Positions 6,435 through 63,171 of a stretch of 64,000 nucleotides of DNA are shown one piece after another (within the stretch, counting starts at the first letter, position 1; each line of letters opens with the position of its first letter). The notes below the pieces were generated by a model. It was not told the origin of the DNA and did not search any database. It saw only the letters and a program-made list of their open reading frames with translations. Source of the stretch: an uncultured Nitrososphaerota archaeon (GTDB lineage: Archaea; Thermoproteota; Methanomethylicia; Culexarchaeales; Culexmicrobiaceae); assembly GCA_964462875.1 (NCBI GenBank), contig CAYWZQ010000003.1:64189-128188 (forward strand), in the 5' to 3' direction. The position numbers and the translations under genes were made by a program.

Positions 6435-6605
6435 ATGGATAATGCAATACAGTATTCCGTGGCTTTATCGATGAAAGTAAAAGCCATAGTTTCCTTTGAT
6501 AGAGATTTTGATAATCTTGAAATATCTCGAAAGGAATTAAAAGACATTATAAATTCTGACATTACATGTTTTAATTTCATGGAGCTACCTAACTTCCTCT
6601 CTTAA
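6435..6605 (+). pseudogene. PIN-domain (VapC-like) C-terminal remnant
   Basis: A 56-aa ORF 'MDNAIQYSVALSMKVKAIVSFDRDFDNLEI...' matches the C-terminal strand and helix of VapC PIN domains (..A.a...ga.lvT.D.DF..). No N-terminal PIN part is present upstream in any frame. It overlaps the 3' end of the permease gene on the opposite strand. Confidence 0.35.
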
Positions 6606-7457
6606 GAAGCTTATGTATGAGAGGGCTATGAATGTTATGGATAGAGATATCATGACGGCTAAGCTGGGCCATGAAGTATTGATGCTTTCAATTAAGCTTA
6701 GCGGTCTAAGTGGTCTTCTCCAGCCGATGGGGTTGAATGGATTAAATGCATACATTGGATTTAGAATGTTCATTCCAACGGCATTATAGTGTGTTTGAAT
6801 TGACAGGAGGAGTATATTGTATATTAGTTTTGCTCTATCCGTGGCTGTGAGATTTGGAATGAGGGATGCAATGCTGCTTGCAATCATTGATACTACGAAG
6901 TTCGTGGAAATCCAAAATACTATTGAGGCTAGTAGTGATGTTGATGGCTTACTGAACTTTATGGATAGGAATATGCTTATTGATAGGAAGCATGCAGTGT
7001 AAATTAGTGTTGATAGGATGTATATGATGAGCCTGACAATTTCCTCTCCCCTTGGAGCTATTCCCATGAATGCCATGATGAATCCCACGTTCAGCATGGT
7101 TGATGTTATGAGCATTAAAGCTATGGTGGATAGACCGGCAATGAACTTCCCATTTAAAACATCATCCCTATATATTGGGTATGATAGCAAGATTATCATT
7201 GACCCAGATTCCCTCTCCCTATTAATGGCATCGAAGCCCAAGGCAATACCAATTAATGGGGCGAGCAGCCCCATAATTGATAGCTGCGATAACCTACCAG
7301 TTGAGAGTAGCTCTGTAAATGTAGTTGTTCCAGCCAGATATGTTGCTGAGCTATATGCTGAGAGTATTGATAGTACTGAGACCAATATGAATAGCATTGT
7401 GAACCTCTTACTCAAAATGATGTCGGAAATTTCCTTCCCAGCAATGATTAGGGACAT
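6585..7457 (-). CDS. ABC-2 type transporter permease
   Basis: 290 aa with six hydrophobic segments, immediately downstream of the ATPase (overlap/4 nt spacing). Confidence 0.6.
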   Translation of the reverse strand: MSLIIAGKEISDIILSKRFTMLFILVSVLSILSAYSSATYLAGTTTFTELLSTGRLSQLSIMGLLAPLIGIALGFDAINRERESGSMIILLSYPIYRDDVLNGKFIAGLSTIALMLITSTMLNVGFIMAFMGIAPRGEEIVRLIIYILSTLIYTACFLSISIFLSIKFSKPSTSLLASIVFWISTNFVVSMIASSIASLIPNLTATDRAKLIYNILLLSIQTHYNAVGMNILNPMYAFNPFNPIGWRRPLRPLSLIESINTSWPSLAVMISLSITFIALSYISFLREEVR

Positions 7458-7461
7458 TCAT

Positions 7462-8394
7462 TTACCCTCCACCATAAATTTCGAAGAACACTTCCTCTAA
7501 AGTCGGCTCCTCGATTTTAAGAGTTAAAACGTATCCTCCAAGCCTATTAATAAGCTTCGAAACCTCTAATCTAACATCCCTATCAGCATAGATTATGAGC
7601 GTACCGTCTTTCCAAATAATTTTTGAAACACCATTAATACCCTTAATTTCCTCGGCAACTTTTTCATTCAAATTTGTTGCTTCAAGAACTATTCTATAGC
7701 CCATCTTCTTCATGAGGTCATCAATGCTATCAACTGCAATTAATCTGCCATTCCTCATAAAGCCAACTCTACTGCAAATCTGCTTAACTTCATGGAGTAG
7801 GTGGCTGCAAATAAACACGGTGATTTTCAGTTCACGATTCATTTTCCTAATTAAGTCCCTAAACATTTTAGTTGCATGTGGATCTAAGCCACTTGTCGGT
7901 TCATCTAGAAATATGACTTCAGGCTTCTTAACCAAAATATTTGCTAGTGCAAGCCTCTGCCTCATACCCCTGGAGAAAGTCTTGACTGGCGCATATTTCC
8001 ATTCACCTAATCCAACAAAGTTTAAGCTCCAATCAATTCTCTCCTCAATTTCCCTCTCAGGAATGCCTGCAAGCTTTGCGAAGAACCTTAAGTTGCGATA
8101 GGCAGACATGTCCTCATAAAAACTGTATCTCTCGGGTATGAGGCCAGTTATCCTCCTAATATCCCTAGAATTCCTAGTGATATCAAATCCGGCAACATAT
8201 GCTTCACCACTAGTTGGCTCAATTAATCCTAAAAGCATTAATATGGTTGTAGTTTTACCGGAGCCGTTTGGTCCAAGTAAGCCGAATACTTCACCTCGAT
8301 AAACCTTCAAGTTCAAATTATCAACTGCAGTAATCCTATTTTCACCTAACCTATAGACTTTGGTTAATTCTCGCGTTTCAATTATTACATCCAA
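7462..8394 (-). CDS. ABC transporter ATP-binding protein (ABC-2 / DrrA-like)
   Basis: Walker A 'GLLGPNGSGKTT', Q-loop, signature 'FSRGMRQRLALA' and Walker B 'VIFLDEPTSGLD'. Confidence 0.85.
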   Translation of the reverse strand: MDVIIETRELTKVYRLGENRITAVDNLNLKVYRGEVFGLLGPNGSGKTTTILMLLGLIEPTSGEAYVAGFDITRNSRDIRRITGLIPERYSFYEDMSAYRNLRFFAKLAGIPEREIEERIDWSLNFVGLGEWKYAPVKTFSRGMRQRLALANILVKKPEVIFLDEPTSGLDPHATKMFRDLIRKMNRELKITVFICSHLLHEVKQICSRVGFMRNGRLIAVDSIDDLMKKMGYRIVLEATNLNEKVAEEIKGINGVSKIIWKDGTLIIYADRDVRLEVSKLINRLGGYVLTLKIEEPTLEEVFFEIYGGG

Positions 8395-8397
8395 TAA

Positions 8398-9918
8398 CTA
8401 TCTCCTCCCAATTCTCCTAAATACTATGAAGACTATAATTAGAGCGATAATGGCAGTGGCAATTCCAATATAACCCCATTCAGTGGGTTTGGTGACTGTG
8501 ACTCTAATTTCCCTAGACTTAGATGAAACCTGATCTGAAATAGCCTTCACATCAATGAAGTAGTCTCCAGCTGCAACAAGATCACTGACCTTTAGAGTAA
8601 TTTTGAAGGCAACTTCACTTCCAGAACTCAAAACTTTAACTTTACTAGGTTTAACTTCAACTTCCCAATCAATGGATGGAACATCAACTACAACTTCAAC
8701 GTTAGTGACATCCAGTGTACCAGTATTTTTAACTGATACAGTGAGCTCAGTGCTACTGCCAGAAGTAACTCTAATATTTAGTACTGGTAATTCTGGGAAT
8801 GATATTTGCAGTCCATAGGTTCCAATAACCCTAATCATTAAGTTAATGGAATCGCGGATCAATCCATCTTGACTAATAGCTTCAATTTCAAAGTTATAGG
8901 TGCCATTAACAATGAGAGGTGAAGGCGTGACTTCAACAATGACATTGGATGTAGAGCCAGCTGGAACAAGCAATCCATAAACATATTTACCGGAAACCCT
9001 GAAATTAACAGTCCAGCCACTAGGAACAGTAGTTGCATTTAAGTAAACAAGCTCATCAAATACCCCAGCATTCTTAATAATTAGGGTGAAGTATGCTGTT
9101 CTACCAGATTCAATAGATACTGCTGGATAATCCACGCTTAAAATAAGCCTCCTATTGACAACCTTTGGTGGAGTAACTTCAATTAGCAATTCAATCCAAT
9201 CACAAACACTACTAGAATAAATAGTGAAATTCAATATGTATAGGCCAGCTTCAGCACTTGAAGGTACATCAATAACCACTCTAACAGTGCATTTAGCTCC
9301 ATCTTTCAAGTATAGTAGGAATACTTCATCAGAGCCAACATAAAATCTCGCATTCCAATTCTCAGGTAAATTTGGAATAGACAAATTAAAGATATTTGAA
9401 GTACCCCTATAAGATACATCAACATCAAAAGATACGGTTCTACCTGCCTCAACAACCTTAGCAGGAAGCATACAGTAAACACTAACCTCCTCTTTAACTC
9501 CCCTAACTACTACCTTTAAATGCAAAGTAGTTTCCCAAGGATAATAGGCATAGAAGCAAACAAAATTAAATTCATAAACTCCCGGAGCAACACTAGATGG
9601 AACATATAGGTCAAGTCTAACAGTTACCCTACTATTATTAAGCAATCTCAATTCACTAACTTCTAAACCATTAAAAACAATTCTCCAACCCCAATCACTC
9701 GGCAAACCATCAACCCTAAAACCAACATTCAAAAAACTCTTGAAACCAATATAGCTAACATCAATTGAATAAGATGCAATATCATTTACTTCACAAACCC
9801 TACTAGAAGTCCAACACCACAAATCAACATTAACAACACCTACACTCGAAACAATACCAAGTGACTTAAACTCAAGCATCAAAACTAAGATGAAAATCAG
9901 TGAAATACACTTCCTCAA
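8398..9918 (-). CDS. cell-surface protein with repeated beta-sandwich (CARDB/NPCBM-associated-like) domains, signal peptide and C-terminal TM anchor
   Basis: 506 aa. It has an N-terminal hydrophobic signal 'MRKCISLIFILVLMLEF' and many N-x-S/T sequons. The C-terminus 'WGYIGIATAIIALIIVFIVFRRIGRR' is a TM helix followed by a basic tail. It is first in an operon with the ABC-2 exporter. Confidence 0.5.
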   Translation of the reverse strand: MRKCISLIFILVLMLEFKSLGIVSSVGVVNVDLWCWTSSRVCEVNDIASYSIDVSYIGFKSFLNVGFRVDGLPSDWGWRIVFNGLEVSELRLLNNSRVTVRLDLYVPSSVAPGVYEFNFVCFYAYYPWETTLHLKVVVRGVKEEVSVYCMLPAKVVEAGRTVSFDVDVSYRGTSNIFNLSIPNLPENWNARFYVGSDEVFLLYLKDGAKCTVRVVIDVPSSAEAGLYILNFTIYSSSVCDWIELLIEVTPPKVVNRRLILSVDYPAVSIESGRTAYFTLIIKNAGVFDELVYLNATTVPSGWTVNFRVSGKYVYGLLVPAGSTSNVIVEVTPSPLIVNGTYNFEIEAISQDGLIRDSINLMIRVIGTYGLQISFPELPVLNIRVTSGSSTELTVSVKNTGTLDVTNVEVVVDVPSIDWEVEVKPSKVKVLSSGSEVAFKITLKVSDLVAAGDYFIDVKAISDQVSSKSREIRVTVTKPTEWGYIGIATAIIALIIVFIVFRRIGRR

Positions 9919-9933
9919 TACTTCCCCTCCAAC

Positions 9934-11013
9934 CTACAATTTCCTCCTCAAAACAATAAAGTATAATCCAGCAATTAAAGCAACAACAAAAATCAGCAAG
10001 ATAAAACCTAAAATATTCGCAGATAAACTTGGAAACCTAAATCCCCTCTCAACAACCCTAAACTTAACCCTAATACCATCAATAACCTTACCGGGAATGT
10101 AGTATGGTGGATTTTCCATATTTCTCTCATAGAACCTATTAGTAATAATGTATGATGTCAATACTCCCTCACTCTTGCCTCTGCCAATATTCCATGGCAA
10201 ACCTGAAAAATAAATATCCAGGAACTCGTAGTCAATGAAACCTCCTAGCTGAAACTCTATCCTTATTACTGAGCATGGTGAATTGCTATTAGCTTTAAAT
10301 GGCCTAGTTAGATTTAATAGGTCAAATAGATCGAGAACATAAGTATTGCCGGGCTTGAACTTAAATACGCCCCTAAACGTCCTGAAAATATTGTATTCAA
10401 ATGTTAATGCACCAGATTTTCTATCACGCTTAATAGTCATCGAGAAGTATGCTCCTCCAAGAATAAACTTTCTTGTTATAGCCGTTGCAAATCCCTCACT
10501 AGGCCTACACTTCATAAATAGGTCAATAGCCTCATCATAACTAACATCCTTCAAAGTAAATAAGGAAATTACAAAACTATATCTATATCCACTTCTAGGC
10601 ATAACTCCTGAATAGGATCTCTTATCCTCAAGTACTGCTTCTGAATTAAAATACCACCTAGCTATTTTATCAGCATAACTTTTAGCGCGATGCTCAGCCT
10701 CTTCACCTGAAATTCTCAAAGTATCATGACTAATAACTAAACTAACTGGCTTATTAACATTAAAACAGAGAGTTATGTACTTGAGCTCCAAATCATTAAT
10801 TATACCTAACTCATAAATGTCTACAAAGGGCTTCTCAAGCTTTCCCATAAATTGTATTGAAACATCACCTTCAGCACTAACAACAATGTTGATCCACTCA
10901 AATGGAAAACCAATATATATCTCATCATAATTCATAAAGCCAAAACTTACTGGTACTGTAAATATTATCATTAAAAGCAATCCATTTAGGATAAATAAAT
11001 GATTTTTCATCAA
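9934..11013 (-). CDS. membrane-anchored extracellular protein, paralog A (unknown family)
   Basis: 359 aa with an N-terminal signal/anchor 'LFILNGLLLMIIFTVPVSF' and a C-terminal TM 'ILGFILLIFVVALIAGLYFIVLRRKL'. It shares clear collinear blocks with 14759..15838 (e.g. FKFKPGNTYVLDLFDLLNLT / FNFKPGRSYVLDIFKLLNHT; IRVKFRVVERGFRFPS / MVIKFKVIERGIKFSP). Confidence 0.45.
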   Translation of the reverse strand: MMKNHLFILNGLLLMIIFTVPVSFGFMNYDEIYIGFPFEWINIVVSAEGDVSIQFMGKLEKPFVDIYELGIINDLELKYITLCFNVNKPVSLVISHDTLRISGEEAEHRAKSYADKIARWYFNSEAVLEDKRSYSGVMPRSGYRYSFVISLFTLKDVSYDEAIDLFMKCRPSEGFATAITRKFILGGAYFSMTIKRDRKSGALTFEYNIFRTFRGVFKFKPGNTYVLDLFDLLNLTRPFKANSNSPCSVIRIEFQLGGFIDYEFLDIYFSGLPWNIGRGKSEGVLTSYIITNRFYERNMENPPYYIPGKVIDGIRVKFRVVERGFRFPSLSANILGFILLIFVVALIAGLYFIVLRRKL

Positions 11014-11059
11014 TACCTATAGATAGAAAAACTTATATATATATATTTCGAAAATTTAT

Positions 11060-11500
11060 TTGATGTCGAAAATAGATAAAAGTTTCATAATATTTGTAAT
11101 TTTAGGGATAAACTCTGTTATATCGCTGGTTCTTGCCAAGAGTACAATTGAACCAGCTAATACCATAGATATTCATGGATTTTTAACGTATATAGGTGAC
11201 TACGAAGATCATTATCTCGGAGGTCCAGCATGCCTAGTAATAGTGAATTTTGATCTAATATATCCTGAACCACGAGAAGGTGTTTATCTTTTAGTTCAGG
11301 GCCTGACCTTTGATAGGCAAGTAGTTGTTGATCAAGACTTAATTTCACCTAGCTCGTGGGTTTATCAAGTAATACTAGAATCTAGCGACCATCCTGACAA
11401 CCTTGCAATGTGGTATGTAAGAATAGAATACTATTGGTGGTCTGGCGAGGAACCAGTACCTGAAGTAGAGTACTTTGGCTATATCGAGACAACTCCATGA
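11060..11500 (+). CDS. small secreted protein (signal peptide), unknown function
   Basis: 146 aa with an N-terminal hydrophobic segment 'FIIFVILGINSVISLVLA'. It is Trp/Tyr-rich and acidic. Confidence 0.4.
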   Translation: MMSKIDKSFIIFVILGINSVISLVLAKSTIEPANTIDIHGFLTYIGDYEDHYLGGPACLVIVNFDLIYPEPREGVYLLVQGLTFDRQVVVDQDLISPSSWVYQVILESSDHPDNLAMWYVRIEYYWWSGEEPVPEVEYFGYIETTP

Positions 11501-13938
11501 TTTCCTTTTCTTTATTTTTGCTATTTTATGTTGGAATAAAGCTTAAATTCAGTTTTCTAAATTTATATTTTGTGAAGACTTGTAAGCTACTTGTTTTAGC
11601 TTTTTTGTTGATGTTGGTTTGTTTTTATACATTTGGTTTTGGAATGGTTTTTGGTGTGGATGGTAGGGTTTTGGTTGTTGTTTCGAGTGATGATTGTTTT
11701 GATCTTGTTTTGTCTGGTTTTCTATGTGCTGTTGCTTCTTTTGCTACTAAGGGTGGTGGTGTTGGTTTATTTGTTCCGTGGAGTGAGGTTTATCTTATTG
11801 TGGTTCCATTTGGGGTTTTTGATGAAGCTTACGTGGGGAGGATTTTGGAGTTAAAGCCATTTATGGCCTTTATTGTTGGAAATTATTCAAGTGTTCCTAG
11901 AGGTTATGGGGATGCTTTGAGGGCTGTGGGTGTTGATGTGAGGCGTGTTGGTGGGGGTAATTGTCAGGAGAGGAGTATTCTGCTATATGAATTTTATGTT
12001 GAAGCTTTATGCATGAGAGCTCCATTTGGGGAATTCGAGTTTCCTCCTAGAGCTGTTCCAGTTATTGTTCCTGCTGGGAGGCCATGTATACCTTGGGGTT
12101 CATTTCCGATATTGTTTGTTAATATAACTGATGAGCTCTTATCCTTCATGAGGAATTATGGTGCCCTTGTCCATTGTAGTCTTAGGGATCAATTTAGTGG
12201 TTTCAATGTTGCCTTTACTGATGTTGATTTAATTGAGGTTTTTAGGGGTGTTCGTGGTTTCAGAATTTTCTCTTCAATTGAAGTTCTCAATGAATTGAGG
12301 AGGGCATATATTCCTGAAGTATTGCCCAAATTTGTTGTTCATGATTTCACTAATCTATCTAAGGTGCATTCAATTTCGAGGTTTAGATCTTGTGCTGGAC
12401 ATGAATTTCCAGATTCATTTGAGAGGGGTTCGAGTTTAAAGCACTACTATGAGCCATATGATGAGTATAAGGGTACTTTGAATAGGGTTGAGGTATTTTC
12501 ACCTGTTAACGGCACTATAATGGCGATTGTTCCTGAGGGTAAAGTGCTCCCTACAGGTGAGCCTCGTGGCATGCGTATTCACATATTGGTTGATGATTAT
12601 CCGGGCTTCATGATCGAGCTATTCCATGTAAATGTTTTTGAGAATGTAACTGTTGGAATGAAGGTTAGGGCTGGGGATATGCTTGGATATTTTGATATGA
12701 GGGATGCCAATGACTTTGATATTGCAGTTTCATACATTTCACCCGTAGGAATCAAGTATTACTCATATTTCGACGTGATGAGTGATGAAGTATTCATCGA
12801 GTATAGGAGGAGGGGTATAGTTTCTAGAGATCAAATGAAGTTTCCTTATGAGGAGAGGATTAAGTGTCCATGTAACTTCACGTATTTCCATCCCGAAGAT
12901 TGGGTTAACTTATCTCCAATAGAGCAGCCAGTGGCTCTAGTAACTTTGAATTCACTTGTACCTAGAATTTTGAGGCAGTATGAGGAAGTGGAGCTTAAAC
13001 TTGTGCTCACTAATTTAGGTGAAGTAACTGCTAGGAACGTTGAGGTTGAAGTGATTAGTGCTGAGGATATTGAAATTGATTCAGAGACCATCCATGTAGG
13101 AGCTTTAGATGGAGGGCGCTCCCTAAAGTTTAAATTGAAGATTAAGCCCTTAACTGCTGGATCCAAGCTCATTACATTCAAGCTATCCTATCTAGATGAG
13201 GAGGGTAGATGGCAAGTTGAAAACTACTATGCTTGGATTAAAGTTTTAGAAGTTCGCGGGGAACTTGAAGCTATACCACCTAAATTGAAGCTTAAGGTCG
13301 GCCGTGAACATAGGTTGACAATTACCATTAAGAATGCTGGGCAAATTGATGCACCCTTCACTTTAGTAGTTGAAGGAGTTAATGTTAAGGTATCTCAACC
13401 CTCCTTCACAGTTAATACTTCAGCTGGAGGTGAAGTTAATATAACACTCACAGTTGCACCATTAAGTGAAGGATCTGGGGAGTTAAAGCTCAAATTGCTA
13501 TTCCAAAATATTGTTCAAAGCACAGCGAAAATTCTTATTGAGGCCTGGAAAGTAAGGGGTGAGCTACATGTTCTCGAGGTGCCAGGCGAATTAATGGTTG
13601 GAGAAGAAGCTTCCATTAAAATTTCAATTGTAAATAGTGGTGGAATAAGTGCAACATATACCATGAAGGTGAGCAGCGATGATTTTGAAGTAAATCCCCA
13701 AAAACTTACCGTAACCATTCCAGCTCAGTCAAGTAAAGATGTCACATTAAAGGTGAAAGCATTAAGGGAAGGTAGGGGTACGGTGAAATTCGAGTTATAT
13801 GAAGACAATAATTTGCTGGATACAAAGGAAGTCAATATAGAAATTAAATCTAAGAAAATTGATTTCACAATACTACTAATACCAATAATTGCCATAGTGG
13901 CAGCAATTGCATTCATATTAGTTATCAAGAAAAGATGA
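11497..13938 (+). CDS. large cell-surface protein with C-terminal beta-sandwich repeats, TM anchor and a possible degenerate M23/LytM-like barrel (start uncertain, likely near 11613-11650)
   Basis: The C-terminal third has repeated domains ('NVEVEVISAEDIEID...KFKLKIKPLTAGSKLITF', 'KLKVGREHRLTITIKNAG', 'TVKFELYED') and ends in the TM 'ILLIPIIAIVAAIAFILVIKKR'. Mid-region 'NGTIMAIVPEG...MRIHILVDDYPGFMIELFHVNVFENVTVGMKVRAGDMLGYFD' aligns with the M23 peptidase core but lacks HxxxD/HxH zinc ligands. The 5' ~1.1 kb has an extreme G+T coding strand. Confidence 0.5.
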   Translation: MISFSLFLLFYVGIKLKFSFLNLYFVKTCKLLVLAFLLMLVCFYTFGFGMVFGVDGRVLVVVSSDDCFDLVLSGFLCAVASFATKGGGVGLFVPWSEVYLIVVPFGVFDEAYVGRILELKPFMAFIVGNYSSVPRGYGDALRAVGVDVRRVGGGNCQERSILLYEFYVEALCMRAPFGEFEFPPRAVPVIVPAGRPCIPWGSFPILFVNITDELLSFMRNYGALVHCSLRDQFSGFNVAFTDVDLIEVFRGVRGFRIFSSIEVLNELRRAYIPEVLPKFVVHDFTNLSKVHSISRFRSCAGHEFPDSFERGSSLKHYYEPYDEYKGTLNRVEVFSPVNGTIMAIVPEGKVLPTGEPRGMRIHILVDDYPGFMIELFHVNVFENVTVGMKVRAGDMLGYFDMRDANDFDIAVSYISPVGIKYYSYFDVMSDEVFIEYRRRGIVSRDQMKFPYEERIKCPCNFTYFHPEDWVNLSPIEQPVALVTLNSLVPRILRQYEEVELKLVLTNLGEVTARNVEVEVISAEDIEIDSETIHVGALDGGRSLKFKLKIKPLTAGSKLITFKLSYLDEEGRWQVENYYAWIKVLEVRGELEAIPPKLKLKVGREHRLTITIKNAGQIDAPFTLVVEGVNVKVSQPSFTVNTSAGGEVNITLTVAPLSEGSGELKLKLLFQNIVQSTAKILIEAWKVRGELHVLEVPGELMVGEEASIKISIVNSGGISATYTMKVSSDDFEVNPQKLTVTIPAQSSKDVTLKVKALREGRGTVKFELYEDNNLLDTKEVNIEIKSKKIDFTILLIPIIAIVAAIAFILVIKKR

Positions 13939-14302: not shown

Positions 14303-14704
14303 TTAGTAGTAAACCCACCCAAGGTAGTATACATCGCCAAGATTGTTTTTCTGGTAATAGTCGTGATACCATAATCTGAAATATGCAACAATAATATCTC
14401 CAAAGTAATATTCTCTTTCTATCCATCCGCCTGTGAGTAAATCACGCTTACCTACATATTCCTTATAATAGTCGTAGAAGTATACGTATAGTTCCGCGGG
14501 GGGATGCCATTCCATTGATATTGTTAAATAACTTGTGTATCCGGTGTCCCAGTATTCACTCCACTCACCAAATGATAGCCATCCGGAGAACTCATAGGCA
14601 ACTAGAGGCTTGACGCTATTCCCTTCGCTATTAGATGAAAGGACTTCAACACAATTAGTAGCTAATAATGCCAGTAATGCATATATTAATAATGCTTTCT
14701 TCAT
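14303..14704 (-). CDS. small secreted Tyr/Trp-rich protein
   Basis: 133 aa with a signal peptide 'MKKALLIYALLALLATNC'. The mature part is very rich in Y/W ('YFYDYYKEYVG...YFRLWYHDYYQKNNLGDVYYLGWVYY'). Confidence 0.45.
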   Translation of the reverse strand: MKKALLIYALLALLATNCVEVLSSNSEGNSVKPLVAYEFSGWLSFGEWSEYWDTGYTSYLTISMEWHPPAELYVYFYDYYKEYVGKRDLLTGGWIEREYYFGDIIVAYFRLWYHDYYQKNNLGDVYYLGWVYY

Positions 14705-14758
14705 AATTTATCCCCGAAATACATATATATCAAGAAAATATAAATTTTTCTGATAAAT

Positions 14759-15838
14759 ATGATAAGACGACATAAATCCTTAAGAATGATCTATCTAACC
14801 TGTTTAACAGCAACATACATGCTATGCTTTTTAGCTAGTCATTTTTTATGCTCTATATCCATGGTAAAATGCAAATCAATATTTAATACCTATTTATATT
14901 CATATGAAATATGGGTAGGTGAACAATTATGGCTTACGGTTTATCCTAATGGGAGTATTAGCGTTGGTATTTCTACATATACTGATGAACCTTTTGTTGA
15001 CTTGTATGATCTTAAAGATGGCTTTCTTGGTTTAACTATTAGGTGTATAGTTGGTAGTTCAGTGAGGATGCGTGTGGCATATGATTTAACTAGGATTAGT
15101 TTAGAGGAGGCGAGGTTGAAGGCAAATGAAATAGTAGCTAGGTGTAGTAAAGTGCTGGGTGTTTTCTTTGAACTCGTTGATGAGGAGAGAAAATCATTTA
15201 TAAGCCATATAAGTGGTAAGAAATATGATTGGATTAACTTCTACTATAGAGCTTCTAAAATCAATTTTGATAAGTTCATTGATGCTTTCTTAAGCATTAA
15301 ACCTAATGAGGGATTTGGCGTCTTAATTAAAAGAGCTAATATAGGTTTGAAAACTGAGCTCATAATTAGGGTTCATCATTTTAGGCAGACGGGTGAAATT
15401 AAAACTGAAGTTGTTCTCTATAAGGTTATTTCTTCATACTTCAATTTTAAGCCTGGCAGAAGCTATGTTTTAGATATTTTTAAGTTGCTTAATCATACTG
15501 GAGGAATTATTTCTCATAGCTCATTAGACACTTTATTTTGGATTTACTTTAATTATGGCTACTATATGGATTATGAGTTTATTGATATTAAAATTCCAAT
15601 ATATTATAATGTCTACACTAGTACTAAAGCTAAAGAGTATACCATAACTAATGAGCCCCACTATCCACCTAGAGGTACTCCTATTGATGAGATGGTTATT
15701 AAGTTTAAGGTTATTGAAAGAGGTATTAAGTTTTCGCCAACCCTTATCAATATGGTTATTGGCATTATAATTGTAGTTACAATTTTCTGCATCGCCATAT
15801 ATATGGTGAAGTACTTTAAATTGAGGAGAGTTGCTTAA
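14759..15838 (+). CDS. membrane-anchored extracellular protein, paralog B of 9934..11013
   Basis: 359 aa. Same architecture and conserved blocks as paralog A, with C-terminal TM 'MVIGIIIVVTIFCIAIYMVKYF'. Confidence 0.45.
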   Translation: MIRRHKSLRMIYLTCLTATYMLCFLASHFLCSISMVKCKSIFNTYLYSYEIWVGEQLWLTVYPNGSISVGISTYTDEPFVDLYDLKDGFLGLTIRCIVGSSVRMRVAYDLTRISLEEARLKANEIVARCSKVLGVFFELVDEERKSFISHISGKKYDWINFYYRASKINFDKFIDAFLSIKPNEGFGVLIKRANIGLKTELIIRVHHFRQTGEIKTEVVLYKVISSYFNFKPGRSYVLDIFKLLNHTGGIISHSSLDTLFWIYFNYGYYMDYEFIDIKIPIYYNVYTSTKAKEYTITNEPHYPPRGTPIDEMVIKFKVIERGIKFSPTLINMVIGIIIVVTIFCIAIYMVKYFKLRRVA

Positions 15839-16554
15839 AACTTTATTAGTGGAAATATTTCTTCTTCTATGAATTTGAAGAATGTGTATTCATCTATTTT
15901 ACTGAATACTGTTACTACGCAGTTTCTTGTTATGCCGACGATTATTCCATGCTTTTTTGATGTTGCTACTATATACCATATGTCTCCATGGGATAAGTAT
16001 TCGGCGTAGAGTGCTGTGTTTTTGAGGTCTGGGCCATATAGGCTTAGCTTATTTATGTTTGGTATGTCTACATTGTCGAAGAATATTACTTTTGTTTCCT
16101 CGGGATTTGCTTCGTGGAACTGTCTTAATGCTTCGGGCGGTATTCTTGCTTCAACTATTCCCCCTACGCCTAGAAAGAGTATTTTGCTCATTTCATTGGC
16201 TATCATGTTTGCCAAGTTCTTTTTACCTATAATTGTGAGTAGAATTTCATTGTTTACTTTTGTGAAGGTGAATGGGGCCTCAATAGTCTTTATTACTGGT
16301 ACTCTTTCTCTTCTCCTAGTAATTTTGATTAACGTGTCTTTACAGTATACTCCTCTAACTCTATTACCTACTAGGTCTAGGTCGGTAATTTCTGTTATGA
16401 GATTAAATTTGTTTGGTGGTTCTTCTACTTCTTCTTCAACTCTATAGTCTAGTAGCTTTGTTGCTATGGTTCTTAGTGGTATGAATTCTCTTAATCTAAA
16501 AATTTTACCTGCAATAACCACTGCTATACACCGAGTTAAATGTAATACTAACAC
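15835..16554 (-). CDS. hypothetical protein (divergent from the SMC-like operon)
   Basis: 239 aa and soluble, with no recognised motif. It shares a 47-bp intergenic promoter region with the SMC-like gene on the other strand. Confidence 0.35.
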   Translation of the reverse strand: MLVLHLTRCIAVVIAGKIFRLREFIPLRTIATKLLDYRVEEEVEEPPNKFNLITEITDLDLVGNRVRGVYCKDTLIKITRRRERVPVIKTIEAPFTFTKVNNEILLTIIGKKNLANMIANEMSKILFLGVGGIVEARIPPEALRQFHEANPEETKVIFFDNVDIPNINKLSLYGPDLKNTALYAEYLSHGDIWYIVATSKKHGIIVGITRNCVVTVFSKIDEYTFFKFIEEEIFPLIKF

Positions 16555-16601: not shown

Positions 16602-18473
16602 ATGATCCGTGAAGTAATACTAGAGAACTTCATGTCTTATGAGTATGGTAGAATACCTCTAAAGCCGGGATTAAACTTAATTTGTGGTCCTAATGGTGCT
16701 GGTAAATCTTCAATTCTACTTGGAATATCAGTTGCTCTTGGCCAGTCATATACTGAGCGTGGTAGGAGGTTGAGTGACCTAATTAGGTGGGGGGAGAAAA
16801 TTTCTAGAGTAACTATTGTACTTGATAATTCTCCTAGAGGTAGGAGGAGGCCATACCCTAAAATACGCTCTGATACTATTAGAATTTCAAGGTATCTTCG
16901 TAAGGATGGCTCATACTGGTTTGAAGTTAATGGCAAAACTAAGACGAAAAGTGAAGTTCAGGAAATACTGAGAGCTTTCAATATTAATCCAAATAACATG
17001 CTAATTATAATGCATCAAAATATGGTTGAAGAATTTGCAGTTGTACCTCCTAAGGAGAAGTTGAAGTTTTTTGAAGATGCAATTGGATTGACACATTATA
17101 GAGATAGAATTAAGAAGGTAAAGGAGAAGTTGAATAAAATTGTTAAAGAGGAAGCTGATGTTCAGAAGTTACTTGAAAAAGCGAAGTCTATGCTTGACTA
17201 CTGGCGAGGTGAATATGAAAAGTTTAAGTTGAAGGTGAAACTTGAAGATGAGCTTGAAAAATTGAAGTGTGAACTTGCATGGTCGAAAGTTGTGAAGAAG
17301 GAGGATGCAATTAGGAGCATTAAAGTCAAAATTGATAGATTAAATAGTAAGATCGAATCTTTGAGGAGGAAGATTGATGAGGAAAGTGCTAGGTTAGAGA
17401 AGTTGAGAAGTAAGTTGAGAAGTCTCAGTAGTGAGCGTGAAAAGTTAATTTTAAAGTTAATTGAAGCTGCGAAAAATGTTGGTAGAATGGAAGTTTTAAG
17501 TGAGCTTGTAGGTAGGCTTGGTCAAGAATATGTTTCAAAGTTATTTGGAGAACTAGTAGTTGAAGACAGTTATTTGAGCAGTATACTTGACTCTTTAGCT
17601 GAAGTTCAAAGTAAGCTGTCATCTACGAACTATTCAATAGATCAAACTTATGGTAAAATTATTGATTGTAGAGTTAAACTTGAATTATTGAAATTTAAGC
17701 TGGACTTGGCTAGGAGTGAGTTGAGGGAGTTGAAGAAGAACTTGAATAGGTATATGGCTGAACTTAGTGAGTTGAAGAGTGAAGCTGAGAAGTTGGGTTC
17801 AAAACCTGAGGTTATTAGGGATCCATCAGAGCTAGTTGATAGAATTAGAATTGTTGAGTTGAGACTGGAGCATATTGGTGATGTATCTAAGGATGTTGAG
17901 CAAATGTACTCAACCTACAACAAGACTTTCAGCGAGCTTTCAGAGAGAATTAAGGTTCTTGAGAGCAATAGGGCTATGTTACTTCGTGAACTTGATGAGA
18001 GAATTAGAGCTTGGAGGAGAGTTCTCAGTAGTGTTTTAGATAGAGTTAATAGTTTTTATAGTGAGATTTTGAGCAAGATTGGTGCTATCGGTTATGTTAG
18101 GTTAGTTAATGCTGATGATGTTGATGAAGCTGGATTAGAAATTTTAGTTGGATTTAGAGGTAACACACCAGTTGTTCTTGATGGATACTCTCAGAGTGGT
18201 GGTGAGCGTACAATTGCTATAATGGCATTTCTGCTAGCAGTTCAGAAGTTTATTAAGTCTCCATTTAGAGCTGTCGATGAGTTTGATATTCACATGGACC
18301 CTAGAAATAGGGAGTTAATTGGAAAACTACTAATTTCATCATTTAGCGGTAGTGAGAATGTTCAGTTCATAGCCATTACTCCAAGTCCAATAATACCTGA
18401 AGTTGAGAGTAGTGTAAACGTAATTTTCGTTCAAAATGTCGGTGGTAAATCTATGGTTAGGAGTGTAGCTTAA
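16602..18473 (+). CDS. short SMC-like ABC ATPase (RecF/RecN/SMC head with about 300-aa coiled coil, no canonical hinge)
   Basis: 623 aa. Walker A 'LICGPNGAGKSSILLGISVALG' at residues 27-48 and a Q-loop '...IMHQNMVEEF'. A long heptad-rich middle follows ('LKVKLEDELEKLKCELAWSK...LRSKLRSLSSEREKLILKLIEAAKN'). The C-terminal signature 'LDGYSQSGGERTIAIMAFLLAV' is followed by Walker B/D-loop 'AVDEFDIHMD'. Confidence 0.75.
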   Translation: MIREVILENFMSYEYGRIPLKPGLNLICGPNGAGKSSILLGISVALGQSYTERGRRLSDLIRWGEKISRVTIVLDNSPRGRRRPYPKIRSDTIRISRYLRKDGSYWFEVNGKTKTKSEVQEILRAFNINPNNMLIIMHQNMVEEFAVVPPKEKLKFFEDAIGLTHYRDRIKKVKEKLNKIVKEEADVQKLLEKAKSMLDYWRGEYEKFKLKVKLEDELEKLKCELAWSKVVKKEDAIRSIKVKIDRLNSKIESLRRKIDEESARLEKLRSKLRSLSSEREKLILKLIEAAKNVGRMEVLSELVGRLGQEYVSKLFGELVVEDSYLSSILDSLAEVQSKLSSTNYSIDQTYGKIIDCRVKLELLKFKLDLARSELRELKKNLNRYMAELSELKSEAEKLGSKPEVIRDPSELVDRIRIVELRLEHIGDVSKDVEQMYSTYNKTFSELSERIKVLESNRAMLLRELDERIRAWRRVLSSVLDRVNSFYSEILSKIGAIGYVRLVNADDVDEAGLEILVGFRGNTPVVLDGYSQSGGERTIAIMAFLLAVQKFIKSPFRAVDEFDIHMDPRNRELIGKLLISSFSGSENVQFIAITPSPIIPEVESSVNVIFVQNVGGKSMVRSVA

Positions 18474-19267
18474 TGGCTACTGGTAGAAGGGTTAGGAAGA
18501 AGAGTATTGTTAAGCGGATAATTGAGTCTTGCAGATATGTTGTTAAGCGTGGTTCTGACCCATTTCAAATAGACGTTAAGGAGTATATTAAGCTGTTAAG
18601 AGATTTTATTGCTAGTTCTAGTTCAGTTGAAGAATTAGTTTTAGATTTGAATGCTATTGAGGAAATTAGTAGGGTAGTTGAATTACAGGGTGAATGGGTT
18701 AAGAGTAGGTCAACAAAGCTATACCTTGACCCACTCCTAGTGGAGTGGAAAATTAGGAATTTGAGTTTAAAGCAGTTAGCTTCAATAATAGCTTCGGCAT
18801 GGTACCCCATAGCTTCCATAAAAGTATTTACTCCTAGAGCAATTGAAGAAGCAGTAAATTACTGGTTAAATCTCCCTCCATTAAGAGGTAGATGGGATAG
18901 GTTACCTAAGCCAGTTCAAGAAGTAACTTCTTCATCTATAGAAGAGCTAATTGAAGAAAAACTTGCTCTAAAAGGTAACTTCACCGAGATAGTCGATCAG
19001 TTCTATGAGAAATTAATTGAGTACTCAAAGGGGAAGCCAGTACTATATATGGACTTCGTAATTGACAAGGACTATCAAGTTACACTACTAAAAGCATACT
19101 TAGTGAGTTTTCTAGCAACGTATGGATACATAGATTTAGAGTATGATCCCAAAAGTAAAGACTACATCATAGTTCCAGTGAAGAAGGAGAGTAAAGAAGC
19201 TGTTAGTAAGTCAATTGTAGTCTCAATATCAACTGATGAGTGGCTTAGGAGGGTGAAGAGTGGATGA
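18473..19267 (+). CDS. ScpA-like kleisin candidate
   Basis: 264 aa; its start overlaps the SMC stop (TAATG). The N-terminus 'GSDPFQIDVKEYIKLLRDFI' resembles the ScpA N-terminal helix (..lDi.di.i..i..qYl.yi). The C-terminus 'QVTLLKAYLVSFLATYGYIDLEYDPKSKDYIIVPV' resembles the ScpA C-terminal winged helix (tFLAlLELvk.g.v.l.q....I.i). Confidence 0.45.
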   Translation: MATGRRVRKKSIVKRIIESCRYVVKRGSDPFQIDVKEYIKLLRDFIASSSSVEELVLDLNAIEEISRVVELQGEWVKSRSTKLYLDPLLVEWKIRNLSLKQLASIIASAWYPIASIKVFTPRAIEEAVNYWLNLPPLRGRWDRLPKPVQEVTSSSIEELIEEKLALKGNFTEIVDQFYEKLIEYSKGKPVLYMDFVIDKDYQVTLLKAYLVSFLATYGYIDLEYDPKSKDYIIVPVKKESKEAVSKSIVVSISTDEWLRRVKSG

Positions 19268-19851
19268 GTAGGAGGAAAATAGATTATTCAGCTAAAATTA
19301 GGAGAGCAGCACAACTATTACTCGTACAGAGGCATAGGAAGCCTGGAGTAAAAGGGTGGGAGCTGAAGAGAGCTTTAGGTAGAAATTACTTGGAGATAAT
19401 TAAGCTTCTAGACGAAGAACTTGCTAAATTTGGATTTAAAATTAAGATAGTATTTCAAGGTGAAGTTGATGCTAGTAAAGCTAAGCAGGAAGATTACGAT
19501 AAAGCGTACTATGTAGTTACGTTTAGAGAGCCAGCTAAAGTATCGGATATCATTAGTGCTGGATGGAGAATAGATGATTTAGGTGCACTAGCAGCCGTAT
19601 TAGCGGTAATAAATTCTAGAGGAGGACGAGTGAATAGGAGAGATATAGAGAAAATTCTCGGAGAAAAACTTCCCAAGTGGAGAGTTGACTACTTAATTGA
19701 TAAGTTCCTCAGATTTGGGTATTTAGAAGATGAGGATGGCTACCTTAAAATTGGATGGAGAGCGAGGGTGGAAATAGATTTAGATAAGTTATCAATGCTA
19801 ATATTAGCAACTCCAATTAAGGAAAGCAAGAAAAGTGAATTTGAGAATTAA
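19264..19851 (+). CDS. ScpB-like tandem winged-helix (kite) protein candidate
   Basis: 195 aa with an ATGA overlap to the upstream gene. It has two wH-like units: 'AAQLLLVQRHRKPGVKGWELKRALGRNYLEIIKLLDEELAKFGFKIKIV...YYVVTFRE' and 'LAAVLAVINSRGGRVNRRDIEKILGEKLPKWRVDYLIDKFLRFGYLEDEDGYLKIGWRARVE'. Confidence 0.5.
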   Translation: MSRRKIDYSAKIRRAAQLLLVQRHRKPGVKGWELKRALGRNYLEIIKLLDEELAKFGFKIKIVFQGEVDASKAKQEDYDKAYYVVTFREPAKVSDIISAGWRIDDLGALAAVLAVINSRGGRVNRRDIEKILGEKLPKWRVDYLIDKFLRFGYLEDEDGYLKIGWRARVEIDLDKLSMLILATPIKESKKSEFEN

Positions 19852-47488: not shown

Positions 47489-48142
47489 GTGAAAATTGGC
47501 GGTGAAGTGAAGTTGAGCGATTATTATCAGGAGATTCTTAATAAGCTCTATGAGTTCATAAGAGTGAAGGGGAGGGCTTCATTTGAGGAGCTGCTTAGGT
47601 GGGCTGGGAAGCATGAAGTGGGCACTATGACTTTAAGTATAGCCCTAAATGACTTGATGGAGTCGGGGAAGATAAGAGCTATTGGCGAACTTTTTGAGCC
47701 GGAAGATCTTTTAGTTGCATATCCAGTTCCCAGGATGGTTGAATCGGTTTCTGAAGAAGCTGAAGAGATCGAGGAAAGAGTTGAAGCAGCTAGGGAGAAA
47801 GTGGAGAAGCGCATTGAAGAAGCACCAACTGAATTTGGGGAGCTCTCAAGTTCAGTTGAAGTTAAAGCTAAAGTAGTTGAGGAGGAGCCGGGTGCTAAGG
47901 ATAGAATGAGGATTACTGAGGATGATTTGAATAAAGCAATTGAGTACCTTAATGATTATTGGAGTGTTGGTGTAATTAGGTTCATGCAAGACTTAAAGCT
48001 ACTTGGGGTTTCCAAGCCTGATGCAGTTTTGAGAAAGCTTATTGAGCTCGGATATGTAAATTACTCTCCAATGGGAGTGGTAAATGCCACTGATAAATTG
48101 CCGAAAATACGGAGGCCTAGAAAATTAATTGAGTTTGTTTAG
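47489..48142 (+). CDS. hypothetical protein with N- and C-terminal winged-helix-like domains and acidic middle
   Basis: 'YQEILNKLYEFIRVKGRASFEELLRW' and 'LKLLGVSKPDAVLRKLIELGYVNY' flank an E-rich linker. Confidence 0.35.
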   Translation: MKIGGEVKLSDYYQEILNKLYEFIRVKGRASFEELLRWAGKHEVGTMTLSIALNDLMESGKIRAIGELFEPEDLLVAYPVPRMVESVSEEAEEIEERVEAAREKVEKRIEEAPTEFGELSSSVEVKAKVVEEEPGAKDRMRITEDDLNKAIEYLNDYWSVGVIRFMQDLKLLGVSKPDAVLRKLIELGYVNYSPMGVVNATDKLPKIRRPRKLIEFV

Positions 48143-62493: not shown

Positions 62494-63171
62494 GTGGTTC
62501 AGTTAAGCACTGGATTAATAATTGCAGGTGCATATGCAGATAAAATAAGAAAAACTCTATTCGCACAGCTCAGAGATGAAATTAAGAGTGGAGATATAAC
62601 TCCGCAGGAAGTTGCTAGGGCAGCAGCAGAGCTAAACAGACTATTATACCACATCATAGTTGATAAGTTGAAGTCTGATAAAGGTGATGTTGTTAGAGCG
62701 AGAATAGAATATGAACTTGAGGAGGGCAGAATTAAGTGGCACTATGATACATTGAGGCTAGAGTACTTCAAGAGAGTGCCGGATGAAGAGGTAAGTAAGG
62801 TTGTTGAGGAAGCAGTTGCCCATGTAGAAGCAATACTCGAGAGGGCGCCAACCTATACTGTGGAGAAGCTCTTAGTAACCTCCTATGGAGACCACATATT
62901 CACAATTAAAATGGATGAGAGGGAAATAGGTGCACTCATGGTTACACCAGTAAATGAGGAAACGGCACTAGTTAGGGGAGCAGTAACGGAGCCAGCACCA
63001 GTAGTAATTAAGAGAGCAAGACTAGCATTGGCGGGTAGATCATTAGATGAAGCAGTCCAGCAAAGCATAGCAGACATACTTAAAACTGGAGAGTCAGTTG
63101 AAGCTGAAGAAGCAGAGAAAGCAATTAAGGAGATCAAGGCAATCGTAGAAGAGGAGCAAAGTAAATCATAA
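62494..63171 (+). CDS. hypothetical protein with acidic C-terminus
   Basis: 225 aa with no motif recognised. Confidence 0.35.
   Translation: MVQLSTGLIIAGAYADKIRKTLFAQLRDEIKSGDITPQEVARAAAELNRLLYHIIVDKLKSDKGDVVRARIEYELEEGRIKWHYDTLRLEYFKRVPDEEVSKVVEEAVAHVEAILERAPTYTVEKLLVTSYGDHIFTIKMDEREIGALMVTPVNEETALVRGAVTEPAPVVIKRARLALAGRSLDEAVQQSIADILKTGESVEAEEAEKAIKEIKAIVEEEQSKS

Follow-up and report, generated by a model that had tools for sequence, protein, structure and literature searches.

We report that gene W, a surface-protein gene in a 64-kb stretch of DNA (64,000 nucleotides, referred to as the window) from contig CAYWZQ010000003.1 of an uncultured Nitrososphaerota archaeon, has a sense strand that becomes extremely rich in G+T at the start of the gene and returns gradually to ordinary composition downstream. 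A gradient of the same polarity, likewise anchored at the gene start, was found in a second surface-protein gene of the window, gene N, and in all seven further loci examined that carry an orthologue of N. In the reading that we favour, to which we give a probability of roughly 45%, the skew reflects a strand-asymmetric pressure on substitution that is linked to the transcription unit. The coordinates of the features discussed are collected in Table 1.

The original prediction, made from the letters of the window, described the plus strand at 11580-12300 as almost devoid of C and poor in A. Base counts bore this out, with A 0.175, C 0.111, G 0.283 and T 0.431 (G+T 0.714) in that segment, and G+T rose to 0.773 at 11580-11980, where C was 0.080 and A 0.147. 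Across all 300-nucleotide (nt) windows of the 64 kb, G+T had a mean of 0.518 and a standard deviation of 0.058; the maximum, 0.787, lay at position 11551, approximately 4.6 standard deviations over the mean. In approximately 1 Mb of sequence from 71 other loci, no 300-nt window reached a G+T of 0.75 except in a copy of the same locus. The rise at the 5′ edge of the skewed segment was steep (about 11520-11580), as expected from the sharp intragenic boundary that had been proposed, whereas the 3′ side showed no such boundary: G+T decayed smoothly to approximately 0.5 by about 13100 and was fitted by 0.41 + 0.40*exp(-d/1227 nt) with an R2 of 0.75. The 3′ part of the gene (12750-13938) had the ordinary composition ascribed to it (G+T 0.511).

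Four-fold degenerate sites showed the gradient most clearly. Along W, their G+T was 0.86 (codons 29-170), 0.71, 0.58, 0.57 and 0.39 against a background of 0.48, and G+T at all third positions fell from 0.91 to 0.47. At the peak, C made up 1% of the four-fold sites, and A had been lost mostly to T (T 0.68-0.77, G 0.17-0.23). Because the four-fold sites carry the strongest signal, amino-acid selection alone is insufficient to explain the skew of W, and this supports a directional, mutational-type pressure, one of the two options first put forward. The encoded protein is affected as well. Residues 29-270 contain 14% V, 11% F, 10% G, 11% L, 3% C and 1% W, with 1% K, 5% I and 5% E, compared with 8% V, 4% F, 7% G, 11% L, 1% C and 1% W, with 7% K, 10% I and 7% E, in the other open reading frames (ORFs) of the window, in agreement with the V/F/G/L/C/W-rich and K/I/E-poor usage noticed earlier. 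The skew was not a general property of plus-strand genes, since the mean 5′ excess in third-position G+T was weak (+0.019) in 57 other ORFs of the window. W was nevertheless not the lone exception that it had been taken for: gene N was also skewed, and a few other genes, lying far apart and on both strands, had milder 5′ G+T gradients of their own.

The sense strand of gene N had a G+T of 0.72 at the 5′ end, and G+T at its four-fold sites decreased along the gene from 0.79 through 0.68 and 0.56 to 0.49; in the window, third-position G+T kept dropping across the downstream ABC genes to 0.29. The N orthologues of the seven further loci share 46-49% identity; the names of their records include Ca. 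Culexarchaeum, Ca. Culexmicrobium and Ca. Methanomethylicia and point to metagenome-assembled genomes from Yellowstone, Great Boiling Spring and Guaymas. In eight of eight loci, third-position G+T went from 0.68-0.97 at the 5′ end of N to 0.16-0.48 at the 3′ end of the ABC-2 gene, and values in N reached 0.97-1.00. In locus L073, the third positions of the first 110 codons of N comprised 3 A, 0 C, 35 G and 72 T, and in L077 the first 200 codons had a third-position G+T of 0.94-1.00. The effect extended to the first two codon positions and to the next gene, and in L077 and L080 the gradient passed smoothly from N into that gene. Since it crosses gene boundaries, the gradient is set by operon position and not by one protein domain.

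Sense polarity and anchoring at the start were found for W, for N in 8/8 loci and for several further genes of either orientation. In L073, each of three adjacent genes, located on both strands, had a 5′-anchored peak of its own, and in L081, where 10 kb on each side of N was covered, the gradient was local only. TATA-like boxes were present 25 to 35 nt upstream of the start in L073, L076, L077 and L001, and in W, L073, L076 and L077 the skew set in no more than a few tens of bases from the start codon, right after these boxes, an onset that suggests leaderless transcripts.

Two of these loci had further peculiarities. In L080 (1588-13102; Ca. Culexmicrobium profundum-like), the plus strand was G+T-rich at third positions (0.74-0.89) throughout a block of at least 11 kb that begins at the start of N and holds genes of both orientations, with a second sharp onset at about 5200, in an intergenic gap; the minus-strand genes of the block had a sense third-position G+T of just 0.12-0.26. 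As the block spans both gene orientations, a process acting on a DNA strand, rather than on each gene's own mRNA, can yield such skew in these archaea, and selection on the mRNAs of individual genes does not account for the block. In L081 (10001-11541; an 843-kb contig of Ca. Culexmicrobium cathedralense), the N orthologue is called as two overlapping ORFs of 443 and 78 aa, a split that may reflect a frameshift or sequencing error close to the 3′ end.

The direction of change was examined in the orthologues of W. Among 5.8 billion clustered proteins, the only whole-protein relatives were P0002 (63% identity), P0003 (56%) and the short P0004; a further protein, P0333, is the W protein of the window except for its first residue. 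P0002 and P0003 are collinear with W from signal peptide to membrane anchor, with an identical domain order, and their 5′ G+T was ordinary (0.55-0.57 and 0.49-0.55) with flat third-position profiles. Three-taxon parsimony, applied to genomes that differ in GC content, assigned to the 5′ part of the W branch 29 A>G against 3 G>A and 7 T>C changes, and 17 A>T against 0 T>A. These counts indicate that the skew of W arose in place on the W lineage, mainly through loss of A. The accompanying protein replacements (I>V, K>R, Y>F, N>G/D) were conservative and toward G/T codons, and we propose that the W protein keeps its fold by accepting such residues.

To compare the skewed and unskewed parts for their rates of change, divergence was determined codon by codon in two pairs of close relatives, on orthologues of N. 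Between L073 and L078, synonymous-codon divergence was 0.114 in the first 110 codons of N, 0.220 in its 3′ part and 0.22-0.29 in seven neighbouring genes. Between L077 and L080, it was 0.077 in N, 0.173 in the ABC ATPase gene and 0.350 in the ABC-2 gene. Amino-acid divergence was 0.11-0.16 in the first 110 codons of N versus 0.04-0.08. Furthermore, 88 synonymous codons contained 6 K<>M differences, whereas approximately 33 were predicted under one-sided hypermutation; flux in the skewed segment was approximately one third of background, whereas a raised A/C>G/T rate alone predicts approximately twice background at equilibrium. One-sided hypermutation, programmed or not, is therefore excluded by a synonymous flux that is too low. 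Two models fit these numbers equally well, namely selection that holds A/C at 5-8% and a mutational asymmetry with strong protection of the template strand.

Heat and the single-stranded state of DNA both accelerate depurination and the hydrolytic deamination of C and A, and of the four bases G and T are the least prone to deaminate. The organism is presumably a hyperthermophile. The window encodes a crenarchaeal-type PolB1-binding protein 2 (47489-48142) and a ThermoDBP-related single-stranded-DNA-binding protein (62494-63171), both Thermoproteota markers that bear on the handling of single-stranded DNA, which fits a Thermoproteota hyperthermophile, and for Culexarchaeia, which encode reverse gyrase, the predicted optimal growth temperature lies above 80°C (PMC9723716). 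Under a substitution pressure tied to the transcription unit, the sense (non-template) strand would lose A and C from the start codon or TATA-like box on, with an effect fading over 1-3 kb. Hydrolytic damage (deamination of A and C, and depurination followed by A-insertion) would accumulate on the exposed non-template strand, and the template strand would be protected or repaired, both effects being greatest near the promoter. G and T would be the end state because neither deaminates readily, and the loss of A mostly to T at four-fold sites would be expected if depurination with A-insertion adds to deamination. It is doubtful, although conceivable, that hyperthermophilic Culexarchaeia-like archaea possess an unrecognised promoter-anchored mechanism, be it an unusually strong, strand-specific protection or repair of the template strand or selection for a "deamination-proof" G+T sense strand at sites where DNA often melts.

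Several observations weigh against a transcription-tied pressure. Synonymous divergence in the skewed segments is 2-4.5 times below that of their neighbours; this low divergence rejects raised non-template damage alone and makes a strongly protected template strand necessary. On the W branch, C>T changes (5) were not above T>C (7) and showed no clear excess over G>A (3). The ABC-2 permease gene has an A+C-rich sense strand in 8/8 loci (the window and those among L072-L081), so that the N-operon gradient passes neutrality and then reverses, and a few isolated genes are A+C-rich in the same way, a pattern that a pure sense-strand model would not produce; the strand-wide polarity in L080 is a further exception. 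P0002 has a TATA-like box of its own and yet no skew, and the link to promoters is drawn from sequence motifs. In addition, a 2026 survey found that archaea generally show little strand-specific mutational skew (PMC12999951). The reversed last gene of the operon, the isolated reversed genes and the unskewed P0002 with its TATA-like box are not explained by any single model.

The main rival is selection on composition, by which the 5′ part of the transcript, or often-melted promoter-proximal sense DNA, would be kept poor in A and C, possible benefits being a G/U-only, weakly structured or nuclease-resistant 5′ region of the mRNA or a sense strand that resists deamination. That synonymous divergence is lowest where skew is highest, near the value expected for holding A/C at 5-8%, speaks for it, as do third positions with up to 97-100% G/T and the conservation of the N-operon gradient over lineages that share so little protein identity. 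We nevertheless consider selection unlikely, given that the gradient runs across gene boundaries and is inverted in the last operon gene, that the minus-strand genes of L080 have equally extreme A/C-rich mRNAs, that the W orthologues function without skew, and that the costly residue changes (more Cys, Phe and Trp) look imposed rather than chosen. To our knowledge, no function has been described for such a region. When the G/U-rich 5′ part of N was searched for long-range RNA pairing with the A/C-rich part in ABC-2, only chance matches of 8-14 nt were found.

An origin of replication, or another strand-switch point, between N and W, with leading strands that are G+T-rich and most so close to the origin, is improbable. 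The plus strand does have an origin-like polarity, being A+C-rich at 9600-10080 and G+T-rich at 11580-11980, and the minimum of the cumulative GC skew lies near 11 kb; between 11 and about 37 kb, third positions read on the plus strand have a G+T above 0.5 in genes of both orientations, for example at 15835-16554 (-), and the strand-wide skew of L080 extends over 11 kb from the start of N. However, the 1.5 kb that separates the N and W peaks is barely skewed, the W orthologues lack skew, and neither the per-gene peaks on both strands of L073 nor the strictly local gradient of L081 fits a replication boundary. No Orc1/Cdc6 was present among the 46 ORFs of the window scanned with Pfam, which included every listed ORF of at least 340 aa, and no ORB-like repeats were present at 9800-11700, where only chance-level repeats and a (TA)n palindrome (11028-11057) were found.

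Programmed hypermutation of exposed surface domains, resembling somatic hypermutation or a diversity-generating retroelement, is very improbable. In its favour, the products of W and N are both surface proteins with the N-terminal part at the greatest distance from the membrane anchor, the first 110 codons of N diverge more at the amino-acid level between close relatives, the base lost is chiefly A, and the shape is like the start-anchored decay of somatic hypermutation. Against it, synonymous divergence in the skewed segments is reduced and not raised. The 64-kb window contained no second copy of 11497-12750 that might serve as a template repeat, and no reverse transcriptase or deaminase turned up in the Pfam scans of the 46 window ORFs. 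A diversity-generating retroelement was rejected on these grounds, and also because the variable region of such elements is usually 3′, whereas the skew of W is at the 5′ end of the gene.

The proposal that a foreign-origin module was fused to a native anchor is scarcely credible: it has in its favour the compositional contrast inside one gene and nothing else, whereas the unskewed orthologues are collinear and retain the N-terminal domain (55% and 47% identity), the change in composition is gradual with no step on the 3′ side, and the W-branch substitutions are those of in-place drift. A codon "ramp" was ruled out by the effect on the first two codon positions and on the next gene, and an assembly artefact by the recurrence of the pattern in separately recovered contigs (ENA, JGI, NCBI and Logan records).

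Literature searches found no published account of this gradient. By analogy, the closest known kind is transcription-associated strand asymmetry. In mammals, transcription-linked asymmetry limited to the first 1-2 kb of transcripts is known, mammalian genes show "local" C>T/G>A and "global" A>G/T>C asymmetries, and in E. coli cytosine deamination is enhanced on the non-template strand (PMC2927911). The gradient described here resembles such asymmetry in its G+T-enriched sense strand, in A>G exceeding T>C (on the W branch), and in its apparent anchoring at the start within the first 1-2 kb. It differs in magnitude, since third-position G+T is 0.9-1.0 here and bacterial and mammalian transcription skews amount to only a few percent. 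It differs further in that protein sequence is strongly reshaped, that A>T is prominent and C>T unenriched on the W branch, and that the skew is gene-specific, deeply conserved in one operon and reversed at the operon end. A last difference is its occurrence in archaea, for which little strand-specific skew is reported overall (PMC12999951).

In magnitude, the closest analogue would be the strand gradient of vertebrate mitochondrial DNA, in which the asymmetry between heavy and light strands grades with the time spent single-stranded. In both cases, C and A are lost from one strand, which is pushed towards G+T in a graded manner and most strongly at four-fold sites. The gradient here, unlike the mitochondrial one, has a scale of 1-3 kb within a chromosome and follows gene starts and not a replication origin, and its synonymous extremity is probably above that of vertebrate mitochondrial DNA.

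Table 1. Coordinates of the features of gene W and of the gene N operon in the window
Feature	Position (nt)	Strand	Basis or remark
G+T-rich core	11520..12300	+	peak 0.83 in 120-nt windows at 11580-11760; tail to about 0.5 near 13100
Gene W as called, 813 aa	11497..13938	+	ATG 11497 overlaps stop of upstream ORF
TATA-like hexamer TTAAAT, putative promoter of a leaderless-type transcript	11543..11548	+	29 nt upstream of GTG 11572
Hydrophobic N-terminal signal/anchor peptide (VKTCKLLVLAFLLMLVCFYTFGFGMVFG)	11572..11661	+	translation; aligns with P0002 N terminus
Conserved N-terminal alpha/beta domain, aa 54-270	11656..12306	+	encoded by the most skewed DNA
CWB2-like core, about aa 95-172	about 11779-12012	+	profile search
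M23/LytM-fold domain, aa 275-475, large uncurated family	12319..12921	+	profile homology
Segment quoted in the original prediction	12508-12696	+	inside the M23/LytM-fold domain
Three CARDB/Ig-like domains	12949-13179, 13288-13518, 13585-13845	+	Pfam
C-terminal transmembrane anchor, then basic tail KKR	13861..13926	+	translation; conserved in P0002 and P0003
Gene N, 506 aa, NPCBM_assoc/NEW3 surface protein	8398..9918	-	skewed part about 9350-10080
ABC ATPase (N operon)	7462-8394	-	operon spans 6585..8394 downstream of N
ABC-2 permease, last gene of N operon	6585-7457	-	

From its sequence, the product of gene W is a membrane-anchored cell-surface protein, in which a signal peptide is followed by a CWB2-like domain, an M23/LytM-fold domain, three CARDB Ig-like domains and a C-terminal transmembrane anchor. 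GTG 11572 is a likelier start than the ATG as called, as it aligns with the start of the orthologue P0002. The CARDB match in Pfam had an E value of 3.9e-12 and a score of 46.7 bits (cut-off 22.7). An AlphaFold2 model of the N-terminal domain, built from 3 sequences only, had a pLDDT of 42 and was too poor to be used for a fold search.

A profile of the N-terminal domain retrieved 132 proteins at E<=1e-3 from 1.84 billion representatives, and CWB2-repeat proteins were among them. Of ten matches sampled, eight contained CWB2 (PF04122, known from Firmicutes surface proteins), six of them with three repeats (E 1e-47 to 6e-56) and two with a single weak match (E about 2-3e-6). W itself had no direct Pfam match to CWB2, and in place of three tandem repeats it showed one matching stretch only (profile positions about 50-125). 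The motif R-[IV]-x-G-x-x-x-x-E-R-S is common to the W domain and to what we take to be the CWB2 consensus. Whereas CWB2 proteins usually carry a triple repeat, W has a single copy, and this copy is fused, in an archaeon, to an M23-like domain and a C-terminal membrane anchor.

The M23/LytM-like fold suggested by the original prediction is present. The domain has the M23 beta-sheet fold, and the profile of its family matched solved M23 enzymes (5kqb, E 4.3e-6; LytM, E 6e-5), the core sheet being shared at profile level with peptidase family M23 (LytM, lysostaphin, Csd3, EnvC; PF01551). Scores against PF01551 itself were 16.3 bits (E 0.011) for whole W and 18.7 bits for the isolated domain, below the gathering threshold of 28.7 bits, and bacterial and archaeal family members scored 13.9-14.3 bits. 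With hhalign, comparison to a hand-entered LytM sequence gave a probability of 92.8% and an E value of 4e-7 over 62 core columns only. W H377, invariant in the family, aligned with the catalytic LytM His260, the His of "YMHNN", so that the equivalent of this His is kept in the W family.

The zinc ligands HxxxD and HxH had been reported as missing. HxH is indeed absent from the W domain; where motif spacing puts it, W has D406-F-D408, a correspondence that we infer, the alignments not reaching that strand, and of these residues D408 is invariant in the family whereas position 406 is variable. An H302-x3-D306 motif, by contrast, does exist in W and likewise in P0002 and P0003. H302 is invariant among 84 sequences, whereas family members differ in the D column and in the spacing, and the alignments obtained gave no match to the HxxxD of M23. 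Altogether R297, H302, E309, K315, H316, Y317, H377 and D408 are invariant in the family. Such a conserved polar set in an M23-like family argues for a functional site, and the domain is probably not degenerate; the idea of a non-catalytic barrel thus lacks support.

The family of W residues 275-475 was found at 68 genomic loci in bacteria and archaea and contains at least 938 proteins, all unannotated. Its archaeal members belong to DPANN, Bathyarchaeia, Poseidoniales and Methanosarcinales, and the family is common in archaea as well as bacteria, so that its occurrence in an organism without peptidoglycan is not as odd as it first appeared. No Pfam model passes its threshold, and NCBIfam has no model for the family. 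Besides its sub-threshold Pfam score and missing HxH, the family differs from M23 in an inserted loop of approximately 25 residues, which holds the invariant H302, E309, K315, H316 and Y317, in a C-terminal helical extension, in being wholly unannotated and in its occurrence in wall-less archaea. These proteins may constitute a new clan of surface hydrolases with an M23 fold, shared by bacteria and wall-less archaea and using an altered set of probable metal ligands.

Some further features of the surroundings were recorded. A divergent two-gene module occurs on both sides of W (9934-11500 and 14303-15838), and its genes encode secreted proteins of approximately 359 and 140 aa with no Pfam match. 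The two 359-aa proteins are paralogues (30% identity, E 9e-34), and modules that match these in gene sizes and orientation lie beside N in L073, L074, L076 and L078. Within the upstream copy, the (TA)n palindrome at 11028-11057 occupies a 46-nt gap between the divergent genes 9934-11013 (-) and 11060-11500 (+) and could be a shared bidirectional TATA element. The ORF at 15835-16554 (-) encodes an unannotated 239-aa protein and has a sense third-position G+T of 0.25, with 42% A, a polarity opposite to that of its neighbours; the skew of a DUF362 gene in L081 (14931-15827) is likewise reversed (0.24). A small operon at 16602-19851 encodes an SMC_N/AAA_23 ATPase of 623 aa, a protein of 195 aa and another that weakly matches Nse4_C (kleisin-like), and codons 210-490 of the ATPase gene have a four-fold G+T of 0.70-0.76. 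An Rfam scan of positions 1-64000 at gathering thresholds yielded zero RNA families (tRNAs were not scanned separately).

Skewed segments of this kind distort amino-acid composition, homology searches may lose sensitivity there, and the segments mimic horizontal transfer in compositional screens. If the skew is selective, it represents a constraint, overlooked by standard codon models, on synonymous sites and on the composition of proteins. If it is mutational, it is among the strongest local strand asymmetries known to us in a cellular chromosome, would offer a sequence-only readout of single-stranded DNA sites in uncultured hyperthermophiles, and would bear on whether archaea possess transcription-coupled, strand-specific repair. 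Should the promoter-anchored mechanism, in either of its two forms, prove true, the sense strand of certain surface-protein operons would have been pushed to near-pure G+T at synonymous sites, with the encoded proteins visibly rewritten; the gradient would be a readable footprint, in the genome, of single-strand exposure at high temperature.

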